Source: a virus (taxonomy: Duplodnaviria > Heunggongvirae > Uroviricota > Caudoviricetes). From it: a DNA stretch of 42,920 nt. Shown here in pieces: positions 1 through 41,470 of the stretch (position 1 is the first letter of the stretch; every line of letters begins with the position of its first letter). The stretch lies in the IMG/VR virus record IMGVR_UViG_2541047955_000001, positions 1 through 42,920 of that record. The stretch is one strand, 5' to 3'. The notes under the pieces are model-generated. The model was not told where the DNA came from. It made no database searches and was given only the letters and a program-made list of their open reading frames with translations. The translations under genes and the position numbers were made by a program.

Positions 1-1254
1 ATGCTGGAACAAATGGGCATTGCCGCGAAGCAAGCCTCGTATAAATTAGCGCAACTCTCCAGCCGCGAAAAAAATCGTGTGCTGGAAAAAATCGCCGATG
101 AACTGGAAGCACAAAGCGAAAGTATCCTCAACGCTAACGCGCAGGATGTTGCAGACGCGCGTGCCAATGGCCTTAGCGAAGCGATGCTTGACCGTCTGGC
201 ACTGACGCCCGCACGGCTGAAAGGCATTGCCGACGATGTGCGCCAGGTGTGCAATCTCGCCGATCCGGTGGGGCAGGTAATCGATGGCGGCGTACTGGAC
301 AGCGGCCTGCGTCTGGAGCGCCGTCGCGTGCCGCTGGGGGTGATTGGCGTGATTTATGAAGCGCGCCCGAACGTGACGGTTGATGTTGCTTCCCTGTGCC
401 TGAAAACCGGTAACGCGGTGATCCTGCGCGGCGGCAAAGAAACCTGTCGCACTAACGCTGCAACGGTAGCGGTGATTCAGGACGCCCTGAAATCCTGCGG
501 CTTACCGGCGGGTGCCGTGCAGGCAATTGATAATCCTGACCGTGCGCTGGTCAGTGAAATGCTGCGTATGGATAAATACATCGACATGCTGATCCCGCGC
601 GGTGGGGCTGGTTTGCATAAACTGTGCCGCGAGCAGTCGACAATCCCGGTGATCACAGGCGGTATAGGCGTATGCCATATTTACGTTGATGAAAGCGCAG
701 AGATCGCTGAAGTATTAAAAGTGATCGTCAACGCGAAAACTCAGCGACCAAGCACATGTAATACGGTAGAAACCTTGCTGGTAAATAAAAACATCGCCGA
801 TAGCTTCCTGCCCGCATTAAGCAAGCAAATGGCGGAAAGCGGCGTGACGTTACACGCAGATGCTGCTGCGCTGGCGCAGTTGCAGACAGGCCCCGCGAAG
901 GTGGTGGCGGTTAAAGCCGAAGAGTATGACGATGAGTTTCTGTCATTAGATTTGAACGTCAAAATCGTTAGCGATCTTGACGATGCCATCGCCCATATTC
1001 GTGAACACGGCACGCAACACTCCGATGCGATCCTGACCCGCGATATGCGCAACGCCCAGCGTTTTGTTAACGAAGTGGATTCCTCCGCTGTTTACGTTAA
1101 CGCCTCTACGCGTTTTACCGACGGCGGCCAGTTTGGACTGGGGGCGGAAGTTGCGGTAAGCACACAAAAACTCCACGCGCGCGGCCCAATGGGGCTGGAA
1201 GCACTGACCACTTATAAGTGGATCGGCATTGGTGATTACACCATTCGTGCGTAA
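1..1254 (+). CDS. proA: gamma-glutamyl phosphate reductase
   Basis: 417-aa ORF; sequence matches E. coli ProA as recalled ([30 protein letters not shown]... YTIRA); host chromosomal gene. Confidence 0.97.
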
Positions 1255-1368: not shown

Positions 1369-1444
1369 GCCGATATAGCTCAGTTGGTAGAGCAGCGCAT
1401 TCGTAATGCGAAGGTCGTAGGTTCGACTCCTATTATCGGCACCA
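1369..1444 (+). tRNA. thrW: tRNA-Thr (anticodon CGU)
   Basis: 76-nt cloverleaf GCCGATATAGCTCAGTTGGTAGAGCAGCGCATTCGTAATGCG...ATCGGCACCA; anticodon loop TTCGTAA; classic P22 attB tRNA. Confidence 0.93.
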
Positions 1445-5192: not shown

Positions 5193-5356
5193 TGGTTGCC
5201 TCCTTTACGCCACATCGCATTCAGATATTTGTTTTGATTCACTGATGGAAAAGAATTTCTCTTAAGCAATTCCTCTCTCGATGGCATTGGCTTTACGCGT
5301 TGGCGAATAATCATTTCTGCCGGAAGAATGCCTGGATTGTATGCAAGTCCTCTCAT
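5189..5356 (-). CDS. small hypothetical protein (55 aa)
   Basis: Not in track; [15 protein letters not shown]...; start overlaps the stop of the upstream gene (ATGA). Confidence 0.4.
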
Positions 5357-5643
5357 GATTTACTCTCCACTAACTGGTCAATAGCCATGCTAAGTGACAT
5401 ACCTAAAGTTTCGATATGCTGCTGAATATCCTGTAGCGTCTGCGCCTGAGATAACAGGATTTCACGGTTGCATAACTCTTTAACCAGATGCTCAAACTTG
5501 CTGTAATAACCGATACGGCTTAGTGTTTCTTTCCCTGCATTCTCGCCTTCTTTGATAATTCCTCTTTCGCTAAGAATCAGATCGTGTTTTGTTCCGGTAA
5601 TAACGTATTTTCCGAGGTCGATGTTTAGCTTCATTGTTTTCAT
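5353..5643 (-). CDS. hypothetical protein
   Basis: Track ORF 5353-5796; start placed at [10 protein letters not shown] with GAGGA RBS. Confidence 0.5.
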
Positions 5644-5653
5644 TGTTAATTCC

Positions 5654-5950
5654 TCAGTCATTACTGATAGCGCCATAGCGTGAGCGGTAATTACGCAGGC
5701 GCGGGTCGATATATTCAGGGAAGTGGGTATATGTGGCTTTGCGGAATGGTCGGATTGATGTCTGGTAAATTCGCTCGCGTTCTTCTTTCTCTGCAAGCCA
5801 TATACAGTGGCGAAATTCCTTTTCCTCTTTCGTTTCCTGCGGTAGAGACATTATCCGGTCGTAGTTTTTTCTGAATTTATCCAGCACCTCCGATACGGAA
5901 TTGCCGGAACATCGGCGTGGGTCATCCTCACCATACAGAGGCGCTGGCAT
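5654..5950 (-). CDS. hypothetical protein
   Basis: 98-aa ORF left of the ssb/erf pair, the position occupied by abc genes in P22. Confidence 0.5.
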   Translation of the reverse strand: MPAPLYGEDDPRRCSGNSVSEVLDKFRKNYDRIMSLPQETKEEKEFRHCIWLAEKEERERIYQTSIRPFRKATYTHFPEYIDPRLRNYRSRYGAISND

Positions 5951-5973
5951 AATGGAATCCTTATTTTTCTATA

Positions 5974-6357
5974 TCAGAATGGGATGGAATCGTCGTATAC
6001 AGGAGTGTTCTGCTGGTTACTACTTTGCTGCTGCGGGCCATTTCCTGAAGCTGTAAATCCAATCTTTGCATTCAGTAATTCAAGAGTAATTGATTGACCA
6101 TTTTGCCCCTGATAAACATCAACCCTGATGTTTTCTCCGGTAATTTCCACAATGCCACCTTCAACAAGAACGCTACGGTGGTAATCCGCTTGCGCTCCTG
6201 GCTTGGCAAATACAACGGCGCTGTAGTTTGTCCATTCTTTCTTTTTTGTCTGGCGATCGTAATACTGAACGCCAGCACGGATGTTGAATCCGATATTTTC
6301 CCCGGCCTGAAACTCTCTTGCGGGCTTGTTTAGTCTTACAGTAATCGAATGTGCCAT
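5974..6357 (-). CDS. phage single-stranded DNA-binding protein-like
   Basis: 127 aa from internal Met; C-terminal acidic tail ...PVYDDSIPF resembles the SSB DDDIPF tail; start overlaps the erf stop (TAATG). Confidence 0.65.
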   Translation of the reverse strand: MAHSITVRLNKPAREFQAGENIGFNIRAGVQYYDRQTKKKEWTNYSAVVFAKPGAQADYHRSVLVEGGIVEITGENIRVDVYQGQNGQSITLELLNAKIGFTASGNGPQQQSSNQQNTPVYDDSIPF

Positions 6358-6962
6358 TAAGCAGCAGCTCCTTCTAATTCGTCTCGTCTGATGTTGTAAA
6401 CGTCCTGCGCTTTGTGCTGCTCCGGTGTGCCTTCGAGCATCTTCCACGCTTTGGCGAACGCCTGTTTAAGCTCTTCCACGGTGTTTTTCTGCAATGCTGC
6501 GTCAGTGAATGCTTTTAGAACCTGTTCAGGTGTAGGTGATAGTTTTGATTGCTTTGCTGCTGCGTTCTGCTGATGTTTATGCTCGTCGGTATCTGCATCT
6601 TTCGCATCATCAATGCCGAACAAACCATTGAGGCAATACTTGCGTGCATAAGAGCTTGTAGCTCCCGTAACTTGTGCAGAATCCATTCCTTTCTTGCTTT
6701 CTTCCTCTCGTGCAAGGGCGGTTGCCGTATGACTGTTTTCGCCATCGGTAATAGTTGCCGTGGCTTTCACGTAATACCGATCACCAATCAACACAACTTC
6801 ATCGCTGATTGATAAAAACAGGCCATTCAGTAACGGCTTAACGCCTTCAAGAATGTCTTCGCAGCTTCTGTATTTATATTTACCGAATGAGTTGTACTGA
6901 TTCTTTGGCGCGTTCAGATTCTCCTGAATAGCTGCCAGTCTTGCGTAAAATTCTTTGCTCAT
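6357..6962 (-). CDS. erf: Erf recombination protein
   Basis: MSKEFYARLAAIQENLNAPKNQYNSFGKYKYRSCEDILEGVKPLL... matches P22 Erf as recalled. Confidence 0.88.
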   Translation of the reverse strand: MSKEFYARLAAIQENLNAPKNQYNSFGKYKYRSCEDILEGVKPLLNGLFLSISDEVVLIGDRYYVKATATITDGENSHTATALAREEESKKGMDSAQVTGATSSYARKYCLNGLFGIDDAKDADTDEHKHQQNAAAKQSKLSPTPEQVLKAFTDAALQKNTVEELKQAFAKAWKMLEGTPEQHKAQDVYNIRRDELEGAAA

Positions 6963-7511
6963 ATGATTGTTCTCAGAATGGACACGGCCCAAGGAAATAA
7001 CGCTGATTTAATACTTCGACTCGGGACAAGTTAAGGCATACCCGCATTCCTTCGCGGTCGCCATTATGTCGATACCAGAGAGCTTTCTGCGTGTACATGC
7101 GCCTCTGTAACTTGCTCTCCTTCACTGTGGTTGCAAGTGACATGAATATCTCCTTCGTTACCGATTAATTCTTTCATCTGACGAATGAATTCTTCGTCTG
7201 ACCAGTTATCTGTAAAACTCATTTCCTGCGATACCATGGAAGGTTGATAGCTAATTTCATCTCTTTATTTGCTTCAAGCCACATTTTGGAATCACCAATA
7301 AATCTGGCTATTACTGCTTTGTTTTGTGCAGCACGAAGTATCTGGTGATTGATGGCTATTTCATTGCGCATAATAAGACCTCAACTCTTTTCCATCCGTC
7401 ACGTAATTTACGGGTGATTCGTTCAAGTAAAGATTCATTTAGTTGGAAGGCACCCATGCGAGCGCCTCCCGCGATTGCGTAAATCATGGGTGGTTCCTTA
7501 TGTTGGTTTTA

Positions 7512-17344: not shown

Positions 17345-17529
17345 ACGCCACAATTCAAACGATACCAGAGCTTCTTATCCAGACACGAGGCAATCAGACC
17401 GAAGTGGCGAGGATGCTTTCCTGCGCAAGAGGAACGGTGCTCAAGTACAACCGAGACAGCAAAGGCGAACGTCACGTAATAGTTAACGGCGTCCTGATGG
17501 TCAAACAGGGCAAGAGAGGAAGACGATGA
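17341..17529 (+). CDS. ninH: NinH
   Basis: 62 aa; GNQTEVARMLSCARGTV HTH resembles lambda NinH. Confidence 0.7.
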   Translation: MNATIQTIPELLIQTRGNQTEVARMLSCARGTVLKYNRDSKGERHVIVNGVLMVKQGKRGRR

Positions 17530-18014
17530 GCATAAGAGAACTAAACCTCACCAAAGAACAGCACGAGTGGCTGAATGGCTGGCTTGAACTGTGGGGCGCA
17601 TGGGTTTATTCAGGTCGTCTGGAAAAGCGCATGAGCAGCGTAATAGCGAAGTTCATGGAGAGCGTAGAGCCGGGAAGAGTTATGACAAGGCCAATGTGTA
17701 ATGATGATGATGGAATGTTGATTTCTCAGGTCGTCGATTCCGTCATGTACATTGACAAGAAAGCCTTTGGAATCCTCCTCAGCTACTACGCTCATGGCTC
17801 TTCCAAGCACGCCATTGCATCTTACTATCATCGCGTCGCAAGACCTCGCAAGATGTTATGCCGGGGCGGCGGGCGCATTCAAAAACCATCGCTCGCAACC
17901 TGTCGACGGGAAGTTGACGAAATCCTCAATGCCTCGTTGTTTATGATTTACCCGGTTCTGGATAGTGCGTTTAAAAACCGGAAACGTGTAGAGAAAATTA
18001 AACATGTAGCATAG
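17526..18014 (+). CDS. late-gene antiterminator Q (P22 gene 23 type)
   Basis: 162 aa; last gene of the nin operon, immediately upstream of a promoter/terminator and the lysis cassette. Confidence 0.7.
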   Translation: MSIRELNLTKEQHEWLNGWLELWGAWVYSGRLEKRMSSVIAKFMESVEPGRVMTRPMCNDDDGMLISQVVDSVMYIDKKAFGILLSYYAHGSSKHAIASYYHRVARPRKMLCRGGGRIQKPSLATCRREVDEILNASLFMIYPVLDSAFKNRKRVEKIKHVA

Positions 18015-18060
18015 AACGTGTTGACATCATTGAGCAAATGAGCAACACTATTCGCATAAG
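18015..18060 (+). promoter_or_regulatory. putative late promoter PR' / Q-utilisation region
   Basis: TTGACA at 18020-18025 right after the Q stop; position equivalent to lambda PR'. Confidence 0.35.
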
Positions 18061-18061
18061 C

Positions 18062-18100
18062 TGCCGTTAGTGACTCTTAAGTTGCAACGGTGGCTTTTTT
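18062..18100 (+). terminator. putative tR'-like terminator
   Basis: CCGTT...AACGG stem and GC-rich segment followed by T7 (tggcttttttta). Confidence 0.4.
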
Positions 18101-18105
18101 TATTT

Positions 18106-18180
18106 GGGTCAGTCGTATAAAGGTCATTACGGAAGGCTGTTAACCTTCTTATCGTGGTTCGAGTCCACGCTGTCCCGCCA
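18106..18180 (+). tRNA. tRNA-like, Asn (GUU) anticodon, imperfect stems
   Basis: 75 nt ending CCA; anticodon stem GAAGG/CCTTC, loop CTGTTAA; T-loop TTCGAGT; one T-T mismatch in acceptor and D stems. Confidence 0.45.
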
Positions 18181-18185
18181 AATAT

Positions 18186-18261
18186 GCTGGTTTAGCTCCA
18201 ATGGTAGAGCGGTCGCCTTGTAAGCGAATGGGTAGCGGTTCAAGTCCGTTAACCAGCACCA
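18186..18261 (+). tRNA. tRNA-Thr (UGU)
   Basis: 76 nt; 7-bp acceptor stem GCTGGTT/AACCAGC; D stem GCTC/GAGC; anticodon loop CTTGTAA; T-loop TTCAAGT; 3' CCA. Confidence 0.6.
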
Positions 18262-18503
18262 TAACTGAGCCGTAGCCACTGGCTATCCTGAATTCATCAG
18301 TGATAGTTACGCTGCGGCCTTCTACACATGACCTTCGTGAAAGCGGGTGGCAAGAGGCTGCGCTAACAACCTCCTGCCGTTTTGCCCGTGCATATCGGTC
18401 ACGAACAAATCTGATTACTAAACACAGTAGCCTGGATTTGTTCTATCAGTAATCGACCTTATTCCTAATTAAATAGAGCAAATCCCCTTATTGGGGGTAA
18501 GAC

Positions 18504-18827
18504 ATGAAGATGCCAGAAAAACATGACCTGTTAGCCGCCATTCTCGCGGCAAAGGAACAAGGCATCGGGGCAATCCTTGCGTTTGCAATGGCGTACCTTC
18601 GCGGCAGATATAATGGCGGTGCGTTTACAAAAACAGTAATCGACGCAACGATGTGCGCCATTATCGCCTGGTTCATTCGTGATCTTCTCGACCTCGCCGG
18701 ACTAAGTAGCAATCTCGCTTATATAACGAGCGTGTTCATCGGCTACATCGGTACTGACTCGATTGGTTCGCTTATCAAACGCTTCGCTGCTAAAAAAGCC
18801 GGAGTAGAAGATGGTGGAAATCAATAA
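18504..18827 (+). CDS. S: holin, lambda S type with dual-start motif
   Basis: 107 aa [39 protein letters not shown]... near-identical to lambda S as recalled. Confidence 0.95.
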
Positions 18828-19287
18828 TCAACGTAAGGCGTTCCTCGATATGCTGGCGTGGTCAGAGGGAACTGATAACGGACGACAGAAAACCAGAAAT
18901 CATGGTTATGACGTCATTGTAGGCGGAGAGCTATTCACTGATTACTCCGATCACCCTCGCAAACTTGTCACGCTAAACCCCAAACTCAAATCAACAGCAG
19001 CCGGACGTTACCAGCTTCTTTCCCGTTGGTGGGATGCCTACCGCAAGCAGCTTGGCCTGAAAGACTTCTCTCCGAAAAGTCAGGACGCTGTGGCATTGCA
19101 GCAGATTAAGGAGCGTGGCGCTTTGCCGATGATTGATCGTGGTGATATTCGTCAGGCAATTGACCGTTGCAGCAATATCTGGGCTTCACTGCCGGGCGCT
19201 GGTTATGGTCAGTTCGAGCATAAGGCTGACAGCCTGATTGCAAAATTCAAAGAAGCAGGCGGAACGGTCAGAGAGATTGAGGTATGA
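18811..19287 (+). CDS. R: endolysin, lambda R lytic transglycosylase
   Basis: 158 aa [39 protein letters not shown]... near-identical to lambda R as recalled. Confidence 0.95.
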
Positions 19288-19751
19288 GCAGAGTAACCGC
19301 GATTATCTCCGCTCTGATTATCTGCATCATCGTCTGTCTGTCATGGGCGGTTAATCATTACCGTGATAACGCCATCGCCTACAAAGAACAGCGTGATAAA
19401 AAAGTCAGTGAGCTGAAGCAGGCGACTGTCACCATTACTGACATGCAGCAACGCCAGCGTTCTGCTGATGCACTCGATGCTAAATACACGAAGGAGTTAG
19501 CTGATGCGAAAGCTGAAAATGATGCTCTTCGGCGCAAGCTTGATAATGGTGGTCGGGTGTTCGTCAAAGGAAAATGCCCTGTGCCATCCTCAGACGAAAC
19601 CTCCAGCGCCTCCGGCATGGGCAATGATGCCACCGTCGAACTCTCTCCAGTTGCTGGACGAAACGTTCTCGGTATCCGGGACGGAATCATCAGAGACCAG
19701 ACAGCACTGAGAACGCTTCAGGGATACATCAGGACGCAATGCCTTCGATGA
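19284..19751 (+). CDS. Rz: i-spanin Rz
   Basis: 155 aa; N-terminal [32 protein letters not shown]... like lambda Rz; C-terminus divergent. Confidence 0.9.
19504..19710 (+). CDS. Rz1: o-spanin Rz1 embedded in Rz (+1 frame)
   Basis: 68 aa; lipobox VVGC and proline-rich KPPAPPAW segment; nested inside Rz. Confidence 0.8.
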
Positions 19752-34458: not shown

Positions 34459-35097
34459 TTAATTGCGAATGGAATCGCGGAACTCTTTGCTTGATAGAAA
34501 AGGATCTGTTCTCCTTAACTCATCATAGTTTTTATTAAACTTTCTTGCTTCACCCGGGTATCTGTTGAACAAAACATTGCAGAAAAAAGAGAGCAATAAC
34601 TCACATATGAATGCTAATACCCTGAAAAATAAAGGTATAAAAAGAAGGGAAGGTTCATTGAAGTCTCTATTCCAAACAAAATAGACAATCATCCCGACAT
34701 ACCAAATTGATATCCCTATACTGATGATTGTTCCAACAGAGGTAACTACGATCCCGATTAAGTCGGACAGTCTGTTTGCCAGTAACTCATTTGAGTATCT
34801 TGCAATCATATACCGCCAACATTTTGCAATATCATCCTGATCTGTAGAGTCTTCTGGAATAGCTAGGCTTCTACATATTGAAGTAGCTCTTTTTTTCTCA
34901 ACTCTTTTTGAGAGCCATCCATTAAAGAGATACATCAACACCTGCGTTGCTATTCCTGCACCAAGTGATATCAAAGACATCCCCAAAAATCGCCATCCTG
35001 GAGATAGTGACTGGTACTGCCAAACAAAAAAAATTAAAAAACCCAATGAGCCTATGACATAGGCTGATGTATCGCTATATATATCTATTTTTTTCAT
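34459..35097 (-). CDS. integral membrane protein, possible SieA-like superinfection exclusion factor
   Basis: Track ORF 34459-35130 (GTG); start at ATG with AAGGAG RBS; ~4 hydrophobic helices; AT-rich; occupies the P22 sieA position. Confidence 0.55.
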   Translation of the reverse strand: MKKIDIYSDTSAYVIGSLGFLIFFVWQYQSLSPGWRFLGMSLISLGAGIATQVLMYLFNGWLSKRVEKKRATSICRSLAIPEDSTDQDDIAKCWRYMIARYSNELLANRLSDLIGIVVTSVGTIISIGISIWYVGMIVYFVWNRDFNEPSLLFIPLFFRVLAFICELLLSFFCNVLFNRYPGEARKFNKNYDELRRTDPFLSSKEFRDSIRN

Positions 35098-35147
35098 TGA
35101 GTAGCCACTCCTTAGTTTTGAGCAGAACACCGGATGATAATGTTTTG

Positions 35148-35399
35148 TTATGTGTCTTTTGGGATTCTATCCAGTAACTCGTTGGAAATTTTATCAAGTA
35201 AAGATTTTATTTGTTTAAGATCTAATGATTTGTCTACTGATGAGACGTCAGATGATAACGCATCCTCAAGAATTTGAACTATCTCTGAGTTCATAGATCG
35301 ACCGTTTCGTTTAGCCCTTTCCGCAATAGCACTACGCATGCCGTCAGGCATTCTAACCGTAAATCTTTCTATGAAATTTGATTCGTCTTTTTCTGACAT
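35148..35399 (-). CDS. ribbon-helix-helix regulator (Arc/Mnt superfamily)
   Basis: 83 aa from internal Met; FTVRMPDGMRSAIAERAKRNGRSMNSEIVQILEDAL is a typical RHH core. Confidence 0.6.
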   Translation of the reverse strand: MSEKDESNFIERFTVRMPDGMRSAIAERAKRNGRSMNSEIVQILEDALSSDVSSVDKSLDLKQIKSLLDKISNELLDRIPKDT

Positions 35400-35439
35400 T
35401 TTCTTATTCGCAAGGCATATGAGCAATAAAAAACACAGT

Positions 35440-35505
35440 AGCATCATATTGACATTATGAGCAATGGCATCATAATGGTGTCATGACATCATGGTGATGT
35501 CATTA
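35440..35505. promoter_or_regulatory. divergent promoter/operator of immI-like region
   Basis: TTGACA-17 nt-ATAATG overlapping the near-palindrome ATGGTGTCATGACATCAT (GTCATGAC core). Confidence 0.4.
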
Positions 35506-35519
35506 TGACGGAGATATTG

Positions 35520-35696
35520 ATGATGAGCGATGTTCTTTACAGTGGTCGTAAAAGTCAGAGTTTCCAGCTTCGTTTGCCAGCGCGAATGAAGGAGGAGATC
35601 AGACGCGTAGCTGAAATGGATGGAATTTCTATCAACTCTGCGATTGTGCAGCGACTGGCTAAAAGCCTGAGAGAGGAAAGAGCTAATGCCCAGTAA
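35520..35696 (+). CDS. Arc-like ribbon-helix-helix repressor
   Basis: Track ORF 35505-35696; start at ATGATG after GGAGA; FQLRLPARMKEEIRRVAEMDGISINSAIVQRL RHH core. Confidence 0.6.
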   Translation: MMSDVLYSGRKSQSFQLRLPARMKEEIRRVAEMDGISINSAIVQRLAKSLREERANAQ

Positions 35697-35769
35697 AAAT
35701 AGTGAAGCCCGGAAGTGCGCGAACACAAACCGGGCCTCTATGTCAGTAACCGTACTCAAGGAAACTAAC

Positions 35770-36408
35770 ATGAATATTGTAGCAAAATCAGATTATAACT
35801 TCCAAGGATTCACTTTTAACCCTGTAACAGAGGGCGGGTCTATCTGGTTTACCTCCACCGAACTAGCTAAGGCTCTCGGCTATAAAAAAACTGATGCCAT
35901 CAGCCAAATTTATGCCCGTAATGCTGACGAATTTTCCGACTCAATGTCATTGACCCTCAATATGAAGGTCAACGGAATAAACAATAGCTTACGTAACAAA
36001 TCGGTCAGAGTTTACTCACTCCGAGGCGCTCACTTGGTGGCGATGTTTGCTTCTACGCCCAAGGCCAAAGAGTTCCGCCGCTGGGTGCTGGATATTTTGG
36101 ATCGGCAGGCAGAATGCTCACCGATTGCAAAACAGTTTACTGACGAAGAACTGGTTAATCTCTGCTACTTACAATTGTGGATGGAGAAGAGTCAACAAAT
36201 GTGCAAACACATCTACCCTGGAATGAAGCAAATTGGTTCTGAGCTTTCAGGAAAGATTTACGATATTGCATATGAGACTCGCTACATGTCAGAAGAAACC
36301 AAGAAATCGCTTCTTCGTGAAATGAAGAATCTTGATCCCAACAATTTTGTCGTAAAGAACGCTCAGCCAATGCTGGCAAAACTTCGCGGCGAGGAATGGA
36401 TTCATTGA
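35770..36408 (+). CDS. Bro-N domain antirepressor-like protein
   Basis: Track ORF 35686-36408; start at MNIVAKS with AAGGA RBS; Bro-N signature FNPVTEGGSIWFTSTELAKALGY...RVYSLRGAHLVAMFASTPKAKEFRRWVLD. Confidence 0.7.
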   Translation: MNIVAKSDYNFQGFTFNPVTEGGSIWFTSTELAKALGYKKTDAISQIYARNADEFSDSMSLTLNMKVNGINNSLRNKSVRVYSLRGAHLVAMFASTPKAKEFRRWVLDILDRQAECSPIAKQFTDEELVNLCYLQLWMEKSQQMCKHIYPGMKQIGSELSGKIYDIAYETRYMSEETKKSLLREMKNLDPNNFVVKNAQPMLAKLRGEEWIH

Positions 36409-36495
36409 TTGGTGCACAGGACGGCGCAAAAGAAAACCGCCAGTGTGCTGCTGGCGGCCTATGTCACACCCTTACTACCACATAAGGAATGCCTA

Positions 36496-37224
36496 ATGAC
36501 TTTTAAGAATGTAGCAAACATCGGATCCGTTGTCACGGATAAAACCATTGATAGCCAGTACCTGTTAGAGATGGTCAATCATGCTCGTAGACAGTGCGGG
36601 GAAAAAGAAGTTCGCAATAACGACTTTATTGCACGCATTAAGGATGAACTTGAAGGTGAGCACTACGAAATTTTCGTAGTTCAAAAATCAAACAAGACAA
36701 CTTCTGAAAAAGTTGTTATGTCAATTAAGCAAGCCCTTCGAGTGGCTGCTCGTGAATCTAAAGCTGTTCGCCGCTCACTTGTAGACCAACTTGAAAGTAT
36801 GCAAGAAGCGCACATTAAAAGCGGTAAATCGTCGAGTGGACTTGTTGAGTATCGCCAGGCGCGAACACTGAAAATGACGGTTGAAGCTGTTACCAATCTG
36901 TTCGATCTGATGCCAAATCTTGCGCCTGAGGCAAAGCAGACAGCGGCAGCAAGTATAATCAACCCGCTCGTTGGTTTTAATGCAATACCTCTTCCGGCAA
37001 TAGAAGAGCATTACTACTCAGCAGGGGAGGTTGCAGAGCAGCTTGGAGTAACGGCCAACAAGATTGGTCGCATTGCTAACGCAAACAACCTCAAAACTGA
37101 GCAGTACGGGAAGTTCTTCCTGGATAAATCTGCGCATTCCAGCAAACAGGTGGAAGCATTCCGCTACAATGCGGAAGGTGTTAAAGCACTACAACACCTG
37201 ATTCATGGGAGTAATGTTGCATAA
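36496..37224 (+). CDS. antirepressor-like protein with KilAC-type C-terminal region
   Basis: Track ORF 36409-37224; start at MTFKNV with AAGGA RBS; C-terminal YSAGEVAEQLGVTANKIGRIANANNLKTEQYGKFF. Confidence 0.5.
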   Translation: MTFKNVANIGSVVTDKTIDSQYLLEMVNHARRQCGEKEVRNNDFIARIKDELEGEHYEIFVVQKSNKTTSEKVVMSIKQALRVAARESKAVRRSLVDQLESMQEAHIKSGKSSSGLVEYRQARTLKMTVEAVTNLFDLMPNLAPEAKQTAAASIINPLVGFNAIPLPAIEEHYYSAGEVAEQLGVTANKIGRIANANNLKTEQYGKFFLDKSAHSSKQVEAFRYNAEGVKALQHLIHGSNVA

Positions 37225-37445
37225 TGGCAAAGAAAAAATATGGCATTATGCCTCCAAGAATCAAAGGAAGAGCCAGGGTAAAAGGCGATGCTGGAAGGTA
37301 TCACATTCTTGGAGTTCTGTGGCATGAGAGAGCTTTAATTTTAAGTAGACCTCATGGGTACATTGAAAAGGTATCTATAGATAGAGTAGAGATTCTTCCC
37401 CTTACACCTGAAGAAGAAGAAACGTACGGACTTTTTGATAACTAA
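37224..37445 (+). CDS. hypothetical protein
   Basis: 73-aa ORF, translationally coupled to the upstream gene (TAATG), followed by a terminator. Confidence 0.45.
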   Translation: MAKKKYGIMPPRIKGRARVKGDAGRYHILGVLWHERALILSRPHGYIEKVSIDRVEILPLTPEEEETYGLFDN

Positions 37446-37452
37446 CCAACTA

Positions 37453-37480
37453 AACCCGCTTAATCGCGGGTTTTTTCTTT
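37453..37480 (+). terminator. intrinsic terminator ending the arc–ant-like operon
   Basis: Hairpin CCCGC-ttaatc-GCGGG followed by TTTTTTCTTTT. Confidence 0.5.
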
Positions 37481-37717
37481 TCTAAGGATATCAGCCGCAA
37501 CTTCTTTTACTCGTTCCGAGATTAATGAGGCCAGCCTCTCTTCTTCATCACGATACCCGCTTACAGGTGATGGTTTGGAGAGTGATTCTTCCATCGTAGC
37601 CACAATTTCGGAATTGATAGACCTGTTATTCATTTTTGCACGCTGTTTAATCTTGGCGTGCAACTCGTGCGTAAGCCTCAAGTGGAACTGCGCCTCATCG
37701 TATTTGCTGTACATCAT
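37460..37717 (-). CDS. Mnt-like ribbon-helix-helix repressor
   Basis: Track ORF 37460-37798; start at ATGATG after GGTGAGG; NRSINSEIVATMEESLSKPSPVSGYRDEEERLA resembles P22 Mnt as recalled. Confidence 0.65.
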   Translation of the reverse strand: MMYSKYDEAQFHLRLTHELHAKIKQRAKMNNRSINSEIVATMEESLSKPSPVSGYRDEEERLASLISERVKEVAADILRKEKTRD

Positions 37718-37859
37718 CAATGCCTCACCAAATGGGTGGAATGGCATCGTAAAACCTACTGTACAAATCAACAATCGTACCATTTCGGTATGTAACAAAT
37801 ACCAACCGTAGCCATGCTGCGGCGATTCCTTGTATCTGGAGCAAATTAAATGACAGACA

Positions 37860-38360
37860 TTACCTACTCAACAGATGGTCAGCAACCATGTTTGCTGCCT
37901 TATAAGCTATAGCCGCTTCATCAATGGTGTTGAATCTCCCAAGGGTTATGTTTTTACCTGAGACATTTATCTGAGCTTGCCATTGATTTCTGGCTTGACA
38001 GAAAGTTACCCCCTTGATTCCAGCATTGCTATTTCGAGGTCCGACATTTAATGCATTTACGACTCTGCTGACATCCCTAAGGTTTGAGATTGCGTTATTT
38101 CTTCTGTTTCTATCAATGTGGTCAATCTCTTGTTTGGGCCATTCGCCATATACATACAGCCAGGCAAGTCTATGTGCAAAATATCTTACGCCATCAATAT
38201 TAATTGCGTTATATCCATAAGAAATTGTGCCAGCAACTTTCCCAACAGCACCTCTGGCGCTTAATTTCTTTTTCCAAGTGAAAATTCCTGTTTCTTTATT
38301 GTAATCGAGAACCTCCATAAGGCGCTCCCGAGTTACTACCTCGTGACGTCTCTTACTCAT
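37860..38360 (-). CDS. HNH endonuclease with AP2-type DNA-binding domain
   Basis: Track ORF 37860-38402; start at MSKRRH after GGAGA; HNH motif [27 protein letters not shown]; C-terminal AP2-like [27 protein letters not shown]. Confidence 0.75.
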
Positions 38361-38373
38361 TATTTTCTCCGGA

Positions 38374-41088
38374 ATGTTTATTATGCCAGAACAATTATAC
38401 AACGTTGTTGTTTCACAACCAAGTCAGTTATTTACTTTAGCTCGCTCGTTTAAAGCAAATGCCAATGGCAAAATTTATATCGGTAAAATTGACACTGACC
38501 CTGTAAATCCTGAAAACCAGATTCAGGTTTATGTGGAGAACGAAGACGGTTCTCACGTTCCTGTTTCGCAACCAATAATCATTAACGCTGCCGGATATCC
38601 GGTATATAACGGACAGATTGCCAAATTCGTAACCGTGCAAGGCCATTCTATGGCTGTTTACGATGCTTATGGCACTCAGCAGTTTTATTTTCCAAATGTA
38701 TTAAAATACGATCCAGATCAGTTTGGCCCAGACTTCAAAGAGCAGTTATCTCAATCAGGAGCATACATTAATGATGATTCAAAAGGTGATGCATTAATTG
38801 GGGTAAGGCAGCCATTTACCGGGGCTGCAACTATAACTCAGCATGAAAACAATGCTCTTTTCTTAAATGTAAAACAATTTGGAGCAATTGGGGATGGGAA
38901 ATATCATCCATTATCTGAGTGGTTTTCTTCAATTTCTGAAGCAAAATCCTTATATCCTTTTGTTGACTCATTATCTCAGTCAATAGACTGGGCCGCGTGG
39001 CAAGCTGCCCTTAACACAGGAAAGGTTATTTATGGTACTGATAATGCGTATGTAATAACGGATACGTTAACACCTGTTTCTGGTGGTGGGATAATTTGTC
39101 TTGGTGTGGGCAAATGGGTCTCAGGATATACTGCAACATTTGCTCCTGATATTACCACAGGGACCACATTCCTGATGTACGGGGTAGGAAATAAAAAATA
39201 TACTGTAGATTGTGTTTCTAATATGGATGTTAGTGGTGGTGTGGTTTCTAACCCATCTTCCGAAGACCCGTATACAACAACGGCACCTGCGTCATCATAT
39301 GATTTATTGGATTTTACTAACGGTGATGCTAATGGGACTACAAGAGCCACGCTTAAACCATTCTCTGCCGCAATATTGATGCCTGAGACAGGATGTGTTC
39401 GCCTTGAGAACTTTCGTGTTGTTCCATATTTCAATGGGCTGGATGGTTATAAAGACATTGCAAATACCGGTCTTGGCGATGAGTGGGATGTAGGTATTTG
39501 GTCACGTGCGTCTTTTGGCAATGAATACCGCAATTTGCAGGTGGTTGGATACTGGCGCAAGACGGCACTTTTAAAAACGAACATTCCTGTATCTGGCACG
39601 CTGGCCGCTCAGGGCGAGGATGAAAACTATTATCACTGTAGATTCCAAGGATTCAAGGGTATTTCGATCCGCGCCCATGATGTATTCCGAATTACAGCGG
39701 TAACGTCCAGCACTATCGAAATACCATGGTCAGCAAGCCACACCTTCGAAACGTCCGGGGTTTTAAGATCTGGAGGCAGGAATTTCACTTATTCAGGATT
39801 ATCCGTATCCGGTGATAAGTTAGTATTTACTGGAGTGTCTAACGCTTCTGAGGCAACAGTAGGTTCTACTATACGGCGAAATGACATAGATAACTTTGGT
39901 ATGGCGGGAACGCAATTTTTCGATTGCTACATTACCAGCCTGTATCACCACACACATCTGCTTGCCACATCGCAATACCTGTCTCAACCATTCAGCCGAC
40001 CATCAGAGTGTATGGAGGTTTCAGGGGAACCAGTTCGCGGTGTACAGGTACATGCAGGAACCATTCAGGGATGGGATGATGTTCTTATTCATCTACATGA
40101 CTGTGGAAATATGAACTTTTACAGTACATATTTCGAAAGCCAGCAAGCATATGTAACTATAAATGGTGGTAATGCTATTGGTTATGGAGCACGTATGATA
40201 GCTTCCCGGCAATCAACAAGCTCATTACCATATGCAGCAGGGAATACTCGAGTGCTTAGAATGGTCGGGTGCTCTGAAGGCAATGGCGTTGACTGGGGTC
40301 CTGTATTTAACAACTATACAGGAGGAAGATATAATTCCGGAGACGGTGTATTTAACCCCCGCGATGCATTTATAGACCATAAATCTCTTCCTGAGCAGTC
40401 AGGAGGTGAGTCAAGACTCGTATCACAAAAAGGAAATGCCAGAGTAGTATGTGGTGTTGGTAAAACTGTACTGCTTGGACCAACGTCAGGAGATTGTAAT
40501 TTACAGAGTAATACTGGAAGTTTAAATATTAGAAGTGGGATAAGAGTAAGAATCGGTCACGCTGATGGAACAGACTGGTGGTTGGCAGATGCTAATAAAA
40601 TAGCTCCTGTTGATGATAATGTTAAAGCCATTGGACAGCCATCAAACAGATGCTCTGTTATTTATGCAGGAACCGGGTCAATCAATACATCAGATGAAAC
40701 TCTTAAAACAAGATATGATATTCTTAATGCAGAGCGTGATGCCGCTATTGAAATAAAGTCAGTCATCTATAAATTTAAATTTAATGACTCAATTAATAAC
40801 AAAGGAATTGAGTCGTCCAGGTATCATTTTGGCGTTGGCGCTCAAACCGTAGGGGATATTCTTAGAAAGCATGGTTTAAACCCTGAGCAATATGCTTTTT
40901 GGTGTTACGATGAATGGCCTGACGTATGGGATGAAGAGGTGATAACTGAAGAGAGCACAGATCCTGATACAGGTGAGAAAATTTATTCTCAATATAAAAC
41001 AGGAGATATGATTCTTGTAAAAAAAGCAGGAGGACGCTACGGAATTCGTTATGACGAATTGGCTATGTTTATATTAATGGCAATGTAG
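38374..41088 (+). CDS. tailspike: P22/Sf6-type head-binding domain, beta-helix depolymerase, C-terminal S74 chaperone domain
   Basis: 904 aa; conserved N-terminal head-binding region; FGAIGDGK beta-helix start motif; C-terminal SDETLK...[10 protein letters not shown]74 signature; true start may be ATG at 38383. Confidence 0.9.
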
Positions 41089-41422: not shown

Positions 41423-41470
41423 ATTCGTAATGCGAAGGTCGTAGGTTCGACTCCTATTATCGGCACCATT
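41423..41470. other. attR core (displaced 3' fragment of thrW)
   Basis: 48-bp exact copy of thrW 3' portion 1399-1446; no 5' tRNA half present. Confidence 0.85.

Follow-up and report, generated by a model that had tools for sequence, protein, structure and literature searches.

The two genes that lie between the late antiterminator gene Q and the holin gene of this P22-like prophage encode real tRNAs, a tRNA-Asn(GUU) and a tRNA-Thr(UGU), placed in a Q-dependent late leader. The reading that we consider very likely is that this is so and that the tRNA-Thr acts as a replacement resistant to the Old nuclease of phage P2, with the pair possibly contributing some modest extra decoding. The tRNA pair is already known, being annotated in phages 21, Sf6, SfI and BTP1. 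As a discovery it is therefore minor: the genes already have annotations in reference phages, and descriptions of this layout in P22-like phages go back to the annotation of the Sf6 genome. What needs updating is the label of codon supplement, because an allele of this tRNA-Thr with a single base difference has been validated as a counter-defence against Old.

The window, by which we mean the whole stretch of 42,920 nucleotides that was analysed (IMG/VR virus record IMGVR_UViG_2541047955_000001), is a chromosomal segment containing a P22-like prophage of about 40 kb integrated in thrW. The virion module is P22-like, and thrW is reconstituted whole at the left junction. The features discussed below are collected in Table 1. 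The tRNA region is a late-operon leader, made up of Q, the promoter pR', the Q-binding element, a pause site, the terminator tR' and the two tRNAs, and followed by a lambda-type lysis cassette.

Table 1. Features of the window that bear on the tRNA pair and its setting.
Feature	Position	Strand	Basis
Aldehyde-dehydrogenase-family gene, probably proA	1-1254		
thrW, intact, tRNA-Thr(CGU)	1369-1444		ARAGORN; Rfam 71.8 bits
P22-type att core, prophage boundaries	1406-1428 and 41430-41452		
Abc2, P22-type	5654-5950		Pfam Anti-RecBCD_p2
Gp33 homologue, 52 aa, 86% identity to HK75/HK446 Gp33	7064-7222	-	tblastn, translation
Late antiterminator gene Q, phage 21 type	17526-18014 (stop 18012-18014)	+	Pfam PF06530 Phage_antitermQ, E 8.8e-25
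Late promoter pR'	18021-18049	+	Curated phage 21 features
pR' -35, TTGACA	18021-18026	+	Curated -35 in phage 21
Q-binding element, half-sites ATTGAGCA and AATGAGCA, between -35 and -10	18029-18044	+	Phage 21 annotation; read in window sequence
pR' -10, AACACT	18044-18049	+	
Late transcription start, predicted by identity	18056	+	Phage 21 annotation
Sigma-dependent pause element, predicted by identity	18057-18063	+	Phage 21 annotation
Intrinsic terminator tR', overridden by Q	18058-18105 (stem 18058-18096, T7/U-tract 18095-18101)	+	Fold; phage 21, Sf6 late leader terminator
tRNA-Asn(GUU)	18106-18180	+	ARAGORN; Rfam RF00005 55.3 bits, E 2e-9
Spacer between tRNAs, AATAT, 5 nt	18181-18185	+	
tRNA-Thr(UGU)	18186-18261	+	ARAGORN; Rfam RF00005 61.2 bits, E 6e-11
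Non-coding late leader, up to holin start	18262-18503	+	Common to lambda, Sf6, HK446 (four-way alignment)
Lambda-type lysis cassette, first late-operon protein genes	18504-19751	+	Pfam Phage_holin_3_1, Phage_lysis; homology to Sf6 annotation
S holin	18504-18827	+	
R endolysin	18811-19287	+	
Rz	19284-19751	+	

The closest match to the control region is phage 21. From the start of Q to the end of tR' (17526-18105), the window is 99.1% identical, with no indels, both to phage 21 (OL657228) and to SfI. In phage 21 the tRNA-Asn is identical as well, and the order and spacing are those of the window. The features of pR' and tR' were carried over from the curated phage 21 record with an offset of +16325. 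All parts of a phage 21-type Q antitermination module are present, namely a Q21-family protein, pR', the half-sites, the pause element and tR'. The tR' hairpin has a folding energy of -20.2 kcal/mol (z -4.7), and none of 200 shuffled sequences folds equally well. A simple promoter and terminator scan missed both pR' and tR', owing to a weak -10 in the one and a long, bulged hairpin in the other. The order set out in the original prediction, with a TTGACA element and a hairpin tailed by seven Ts after the Q stop, then two tRNAs 5 nt apart ahead of the holin, is found where it was placed.

Both tRNA candidates had been proposed from the sequence with scoring as the check, and both pass it comfortably. 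ARAGORN calls the two, and their Rfam scores compare with a gathering score of 29 for RF00005, each tRNA spanning model positions 1-71 of 71. The tRNA-Asn has the discriminator G73, an encoded CCA, an intact U33/A37 loop context and all of the tertiary-interaction nucleotides (U8, A14, G18 G19, T54 psi55 C56 and U33). The acceptor and D-stem mismatches originally noted in it are real; they are U4·U69 and U13·U22, and they are accompanied by C9 and a 4-nt variable loop. The tRNA-Thr has G1-C72, C2-G71, G35, U36, A73, an encoded CCA, U28-A42 and an anticodon loop of CUUGUAA (UGU plus A37). Its description as well-formed stands insofar as it is a true tRNA by its score, but it departs from consensus in the G27·A43 mismatch and in C14. 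Position 14 is nearly universally A; in this tRNA-Thr family it is C, with U or G in minor alleles and A in none of 20. The synthetase identity rules for Asn and Thr come from established E. coli work, and by these rules both tRNAs appear to carry the appropriate identity elements along with the 3' CCA. The tRNA-Asn is identical to host asnT at 48 of 76 positions and the tRNA-Thr to host thrU at 54 of 76, so neither is a recent copy of the host gene. The spacer AATAT reads AACAT in most relatives.

The tRNA-Asn has more similar counterparts in other phages than in the host. Genes for tRNA-Asn in Mosigvirus (T-even-like) and in jumbo phages share with it C9, U13·U22 and the 4-nt variable loop, and their core is 80-85% identical to that of the window, compared to about 63% for host asnT. 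They differ in having a U4·G69 wobble in place of U4·U69, and in being located in the large tRNA arrays of virulent phages, whereas the gene of the window is located behind a Q-dependent terminator.

The segment matches 175 phage records, in many of which tRNA-Asn and tRNA-Thr are annotated, and it is present in 369 of 5,426 complete E. coli genomes (7%). We surveyed 80 viral contigs selected solely for encoding a Q21-type protein. The pair Asn+Thr is found in 46 of these, Asn+Gly(UCC) in 6, Asn+Thr+Gly in 1, Asn alone in 2 and no tRNA in 22, with the remaining 3 truncated. Since it is absent from 22 of 77 Q21-type loci, the cassette is dispensable. With the tRNA-Asn as anchor instead, the contigs carry arrays of Asn-Thr (95), Asn-Gly (7) and Asn (6), plus Asn-Phe-Thr-Arg and variants. 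The tRNA-Asn is the first and constant member in every cassette variant. Nor is the cassette tied to one antiterminator, as it is found behind Q21, Sf6-type, lambda-type (HK446) and Klebsiella-type proteins.

The relationships of the window to individual phages around this site are mosaic. Phage 21 continues from the tRNAs into the S21 pinholin and a SAR endolysin, whereas the window switches to lambda-type S, R and Rz. Lambda homology starts directly after the CCA of tRNA-Thr, and phage 21 homology, which takes in the initial ~60 nt of the non-coding leader, stops at the end of that interval, which places the pair at a mosaic junction. A supposed vestige of the tRNA-Thr 3' end in lambda is unconvincing, being merely a loose CAGCAC match beside the shared junction. 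Sf6, BTP1 and SPN9CC (Lederbergvirus) and SfI have the same pair, annotated as tRNA-Asn and tRNA-Thr, between the antiterminator and a lambda-type holin, as in the window, with 97-99% identity from tR' to the holin. The Q-binding region and Q allele of Sf6 differ from those of the window, homology beginning at the transcription start (window position 18057); its late leader is annotated as similar to phage 21. The literature records no tRNA at this site in P22, Asn+Thr in Sf6, Asn+Leu in phage L and a tandem Asn/Thr in SfI (PMC8022706, PMC2629481, PMC3636060), and the statement in the original prediction that P22 lacks tRNAs here while other lambdoid phages carry them agrees with the first of these sources. 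In phage L, the Leu is annotated as Leu(UAA) and takes the place of Thr. In HK446, an unannotated tRNA-Asn adjoins the tRNA-Thr, which a preprint calls the single tRNA of that phage (10.64898/2026.07.10.737580). HK97 has no tRNA at the corresponding site. Stx phages of the 933W type have an ileZ-argN-argO tRNA cluster in an analogous place, downstream of Q and promoter-proximal in the Q-dependent late transcript. That cluster has other tRNA species (Ile and Arg), classically explained by the use of rare codons.

A function for the tRNA-Thr is suggested by recent work on P2 Old. Old kills by excising the anticodon arm from the one tRNA-Thr(UGU) that the host has; the cuts fall behind the C in paired CNG motifs (nucleotides 28-30 and 40-42), and phage tRNA-Thr(UGU) genes rescue through resistance to the cleavage (Govande et al. 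2025, PMC12445682). In particular, tRNA-Thr21 of phage 21 protects Old+ Gam+ cells and resists purified P2-OLD, a resistance attributed to C28U/G42A together with a shortened stem (PMC12445682). The Thr(UGU) of HK446 supplied in trans restores plating of the Old-sensitive phages HK97, HK542 and Bas34 (bioRxiv 10.64898/2026.07.10.737580). The same preprint reports that a viral Thr(UGU) alone does not rescue lambda or recB-deficient cells and that HK446 also needs Oad2; its authors suggest that the tRNA may serve another purpose.

The tRNA-Thr genes of phage 21 and HK446 are identical to each other, and that of the window matches them at 75 of 76 positions. The sole change is at position 26, which is A in phage 21 and G in the window. 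This position is unpaired, and G26 is a common natural allele, occurring in 15 of 107 copies. At nucleotides 28-30/40-42 of the anticodon stem, the tRNA-Thr of the window reads UCG/CGA and host thrU CUG/CAG, and at 27-43 the former has the G27·A43 mismatch where the latter has an A27-U43 pair. It thus shares the traits of the Thr21/HK446 allele: UGU with A37, loss of the paired CNG motif and a shortened anticodon stem. That allele, which has the same C14, restores decoding of ACA from a plasmid (PMC12445682; 10.64898/2026.07.10.737580). Its resistance is known from plasmid and in vitro results, to which the tRNA-Thr of the window is likened by sequence, A26G apart. By this analogy the tRNA-Thr of the window would be a stand-in for the host tRNA-Thr(UGU) cut by Old, and this reading appears better supported than codon supplementation. 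The changes lie in the stem and not in the loop. An evasion route by anticodon-loop mutation, as in the model of PMC10264068 (eLife), was considered and rejected: the loops of both phage tRNAs equal the host loops, and it is the stems that differ.

The prophage also carries a candidate trigger. Its early-left operon matches the recombination locus of HK446, with gp28, gp29, Abc2, gp31, Erf (supported by Pfam ERF), Gp33 and Kil at 86-99% amino acid identity. In the HK446 study, Gp33 is the trigger of P2 Old and Oad2 is its inhibitor (10.64898/2026.07.10.737580). The Gp33 homologue of the window is intact, with a C-terminus that differs from Gp33 of HK75 and HK446. Abc2 of the P22 type, which does not trigger Old, is present in the window beside it. 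A tblastn search of the window for Oad2 found no homologue (best E 1.6). HK446 thus combines a lambda-type Q with Oad2, whereas the window has a Q of the 21 type and lacks Oad2. Judged by these gene contents, the prophage would be a clean natural case in cis, with a Gp33-type trigger, no Oad2 and a tRNA of the resistant type.

We presume the following course of events. The promoter pR' would be constitutively active, with its transcripts halting at tR'. Once Q21 was loaded on RNA polymerase, tR' would be read through, and tRNA-Asn and tRNA-Thr would be the first products of the late transcript. Host RNase P and the 3' trimming enzymes would then free both tRNAs, the CCA being already encoded. 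Proteins of the phage recombination locus may trigger P2 Old, which would cut host thrU at the CUG/CAG of its anticodon stem; the phage tRNA-Thr, with G27·A43 and UCG/CGA, would survive, and ACA codons would stay readable. Both tRNAs may in addition give modest extra decoding for the Asn- and ACA-rich virion genes. We infer the co-transcription and processing of the pair, the relevance of Old to this particular prophage and any role of the tRNA-Asn.

The timing counts against the Old account, as the tRNAs are in the late operon and Old is triggered early. For that reason, a timely supply of tRNA would need either read-through of tR' or carry-over from the lysogen. Some bearing on this comes from BTP1: its tRNA genes, the Asn being identical to that of the window, were kept separate when its highly expressed genes were listed (PMC7067206). 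Setting them apart from the listed high-expression prophage genes implies that they are highly expressed themselves. Because BTP1 induces spontaneously at a high rate, basal and induced expression in it are inseparable.

The alternative that fares best is pure codon supplementation, in which the tRNAs would solely boost the decoding of AAC/AAU and ACA/ACU/ACG, codons commoner in the late virion genes. We compared codon use with a host reference of 45 K-12 genes (14,534 codons). Asn codons occur at 56.2 per 1000 in the late genes compared to 40.7 in the K-12 sample (odds ratio 1.41, p 2e-6), and ACA at 16.3 compared to 8.4 (odds ratio 1.95, p 2e-6). ACA codons are found in 10 of 10 late genes checked. 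The late genes exceed the early ones in Asn codons too (p 0.007), and the coat gene favours AAC (20 of its 24 Asn codons). The supplementation of late-gene codon usage that was originally proposed agrees with these excesses, and it has been argued likewise in the papers on SfI (PMC3636060) and phage L (PMC8022706). It does not fit the rest of the codon data. The early genes, whose expression precedes that of the tRNAs, are as rich in ACA as the late genes. The coat protein, which is the most abundant one, avoids ACA (3 of 42 Thr codons). The codons AGA, AGG, AUA, UCA and CGA are skewed more than ACA or Asn, yet the matching tRNAs are not carried at the locus. The host, moreover, has several tRNA-Asn genes. 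The SfI authors themselves saw no bias that accounted for the tRNA-Asn (PMC3636060). Finally, additional host thrU does not protect against Old where the phage allele does (PMC12445682); since it fails there, the differences in sequence must matter beyond dose. Codon supplementation is compatible with the data but weakly supported, and it does not predict the particular pairing of Asn with Thr. As a complete account of the genes we think it rather unlikely.

Given the reading of the tRNA-Thr as an Old-resistant replacement, one may ask whether the tRNA-Asn is its partner in an anti-nuclease cassette of two tRNAs and not a codon supplement either. We offer this tentatively and find it doubtful. 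The anticodon stem of the tRNA-Asn is a full 5 bp with AAG/CUU, where host asnT has CGG/CCG with A37, a paired CNG motif in the A37 context that P2 Old cuts. The tRNA-Asn alleles of the Klebsiella lineage keep CAG/CUG, and those of the E. coli/Salmonella lineage are without the motif on both strands. The Mosigvirus and jumbo phage genes resemble the gene of the window in this respect also, having an anticodon stem without the CNG motif. P2-OLD cleavage kinetics have been compared with thrU for three tRNAs, Asn(GUU), Lys(UUU) and Val(UAC) (PMC12445682). The tRNAs that Old depletes by more than 2-fold do not include Asn, and the listing of Old-depleted tRNAs opens with Thr(UGU) and Gly(UCC) (10.64898/2026.07.10.737580). 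Thr(UGU) and Gly(UCC) are likewise the alternative second members of the cassette. The motif logic was extended to the Gly(UCC) member and fails there, as it is identical to host glyT at 71 of 75 positions, keeps CAG/CUG and has A38G as its sole change in the anticodon arm. With the cassette behind a constitutive pR' and tR', read-through would pre-load lysogens with resistant tRNAs. It is equally possible that the conserved U4·U69 could serve to evade another nuclease directed at tRNA-Asn.

A much less probable idea is that the cloverleaves are mainly signals for RNA processing, by which an RNase P cut would detach the promoter-proximal leader from the late mRNA or define the 5' end of that mRNA. 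The tRNA-Asn does adjoin the U-tract of tR' directly, and the lytic operon of BTP1 has been mapped as beginning directly after the tRNAs (PMC7067206). However, the anticodon loops, identity elements and encoded CCA are conserved, though they would be unneeded for processing, and the plasmid-borne tRNA-Thr decodes alone (PMC12445682; 10.64898/2026.07.10.737580). Furthermore, a Klebsiella relative has about 90 nt and another hairpin between the terminator and the tRNA-Asn, so a functional coupling of tR' to the tRNA-Asn through their abutment, which we had entertained, is not general.

The first gene had been suspected of being decayed or non-canonical, and as a rival this would make it a pseudo-tRNA kept by linkage to tR' and the tRNA-Thr. 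Points in favour are the two mismatches, C9, the 4-nt variable loop and an Rfam score below that of the tRNA-Thr. That score is nonetheless 55 bits against the gathering score of 29, and G73, the GUU anticodon and U33/A37 are intact. The same D-arm oddities appear in the tRNA-Asn genes of T-even-like and jumbo phages. The gene is the member that all cassette variants have in common. Phages 21, Sf6, L, BTP1 and HK446 carry it without a single change despite differing flanks, as indeed do dozens of otherwise mosaic phages.

The pattern of variation speaks to the same question. We compared 23 distinct haplotypes alignable over the stretch between pR' and the holin. Variable columns number 7 of 151 in the tRNAs and, in the non-coding leader next to them, 47 of 242 (p 1.7e-5), so that both tRNAs vary 4-5 times less than the adjacent non-coding DNA. 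Both tRNAs are under purifying selection. The tRNA-Asn was recovered as 19 distinct alleles by a search pattern that fixed its T-arm and part of its anticodon arm. These fall into acceptor-stem lineages with GGGUCAG/CUGUCCC, GGGUCGA/UCGUCCC and GGGUAGG/CCUUCCC. Across the three lineages, five pairs are compensated (5-68, 6-67, 7-66, 28-42 and 29-41), and six pairs in all are altered on both sides. Of the 19 alleles, 17 keep U4·U69 unpaired and all have U13·U22 unpaired. For the tRNA-Thr, with 20 alleles, there are also five compensated pairs (3-70, 5-68, 6-67, 49-65 and 51-63), and G27·A43 and U28-A42 are invariant in all 20. The covariation score of each tRNA was matched by none of 500 shuffles, and slid controls scored far lower. 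By the alignments, the mismatches U4·U69, U13·U22 and G27·A43 are therefore conserved traits rather than decay. The first tRNA is non-canonical solely in the sense of these conserved peculiarities; decay is contradicted by stems that covary in three lineages, and we regard the pseudo-tRNA as extremely improbable.

We give just as little credence to the suggestion, made by the preprint authors for HK446, that the tRNAs offset a host tRNA gene disrupted by integration (10.64898/2026.07.10.737580), although this prophage and HK446 are both in thrW, itself a tRNA-Thr gene. The thrW gene is intact at the left junction, the UGU anticodon of the phage tRNA differs from that of thrW, the same cassette is found in phages with other integration sites, and the tRNA-Asn would be left unaccounted for. 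One such phage is Sf6, presumably integrating at argW.

Scanned against Rfam at permissive settings, the two strands of 17900-18600 gave the two tRNAs and nothing more. The short RNA that would run from pR' to tR' belongs to no Rfam family. A minus-strand ORF of 50 amino acids (18127-18279) overlies the tRNAs. It is labelled as a hypothetical protein in a few phage records; we consider it an annotation artefact, its conservation being accounted for by the tRNA signal.

In phage HK446 (L210, JQ086372), ARAGORN calls both tRNA-Asn(GUU) and tRNA-Thr(UGU), and the pair is placed 3' of a lambda-type Q and pR'. The GenBank record carries no tRNA annotation, and HK446 is credited with a single tRNA, Thr(UGU) (bioRxiv 10.64898/2026.07.10.737580). 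The window prophage itself has an HK446-type recombination locus. It includes a homologue of Gp33, the reported trigger of the P2 tRNA nuclease Old; the inhibitor Oad2 was not found anywhere in the whole window.

Coordinates of the features discussed (L-numbers are compared phage or viral loci, each in its own coordinates)
Feature	Source	Position	Strand	Remark
tRNA-Asn(GUU)	HK446, JQ086372	35097-35171		ARAGORN; identical to window tRNA-Asn
tRNA-Thr(UGU)	HK446, JQ086372	35177-35252		ARAGORN
Chimeric tRNA-Thr(UGU)	L082 and L193	1359-1434		both loci are one IMG/VR contig, 2698536369_000006
Gly(UCC) of Asn-Gly loci (examples)	L060; L067	2240-2314; 1388-1462
Asn-Phe-Thr-Arg(UCU) array	L006 (Klebsiella phage ST16-OXA48phi5.2)	1501-1820
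Asn ... Asn-Arg(UCU) array	L007	1501-2552
GCACAACAGGTAAGAGCA segment	L003 (lambda); also L011, L014, L033, other loci	~985-1065 (L003)		directly after tR'
50-aa ORF	window	18127-18279	minus	antisense to both tRNAs
HK446-type recombination locus	window	5201-7371	minus	gp28, gp29, Abc2, gp31, Erf, Gp33-like ORF, Kil
Abc2	window	5654-5950	minus
Gp33-like ORF	window	7064-7222	minus	homologue of reported Old trigger
P22-type att core, exact 23-nt repeats	window	1406-1428 and 41430-41452		prophage boundaries
thrW	window	1369-1444		regenerated intact at prophage left end
Block of ORFs	window	34459-38402	mostly minus	between ejection-protein genes and tailspike gene

The tRNA-Thr of L082/L193 is chimeric: nucleotides 1-25 are phage-type, while nucleotides 26-76 are identical to host thrU and thus give it an Old-sensitive anticodon arm. 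It is followed by a glyT-like Gly(UCC). The array looks as if the phage cassette had recombined with the host thrU-tyrU-glyT-thrT operon, an event from which the Asn-Gly cassettes may have arisen. The Gly(UCC) of the latter matches host glyT at 71 of 75 positions, with A38G as the sole change in the anticodon arm. Among the tRNAs depleted by Old, Gly(UCC) is second in the list (bioRxiv 10.64898/2026.07.10.737580).

Position 14 of the window tRNA-Thr (18199) is C, replaced by U or G in minor alleles and by A in 0 of 20. A14 is near-universal among tRNAs, and the U8-A14 tertiary pair of the phage tRNA-Thr is evidently dispensable or replaced. The 50-aa ORF antisense to the pair has an annotated "hypothetical protein" at the equivalent position in some phage records (KY709687, PP921804); most likely this gene call is an artefact of annotation.

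Larger tRNA arrays occupy the same late-leader site in Klebsiella lambdoid phages. A hairpin of ~90 nt separates the terminator from tRNA-Asn in L006, and one tRNA-Asn copy of L007 ends in ACA, not CCA.

In tRNA-free loci of the Q21 type (phage 21-type antiterminator), the tRNA slot directly 3' of the terminator tR' is filled by a lambda segment, GCACAACAGGTAAGAGCA...TGCTCTT(T/A)(C/T)CGTTGTG. This segment is a long inverted repeat whose ~40-nt interior exists in at least three different versions; the lambda copy has a fold z of -2.5. It is an alternative cassette, bordered like the tRNAs by tR' and AACTGAGCCGTAGCC.

At the left end of the prophage, thrW is adjoined by a 417-aa aldehyde-dehydrogenase-family gene, probably proA. 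The block of mostly minus-strand ORFs between the ejection-protein and tailspike genes lies at the site of immI or the accessory region in P22-like phages.
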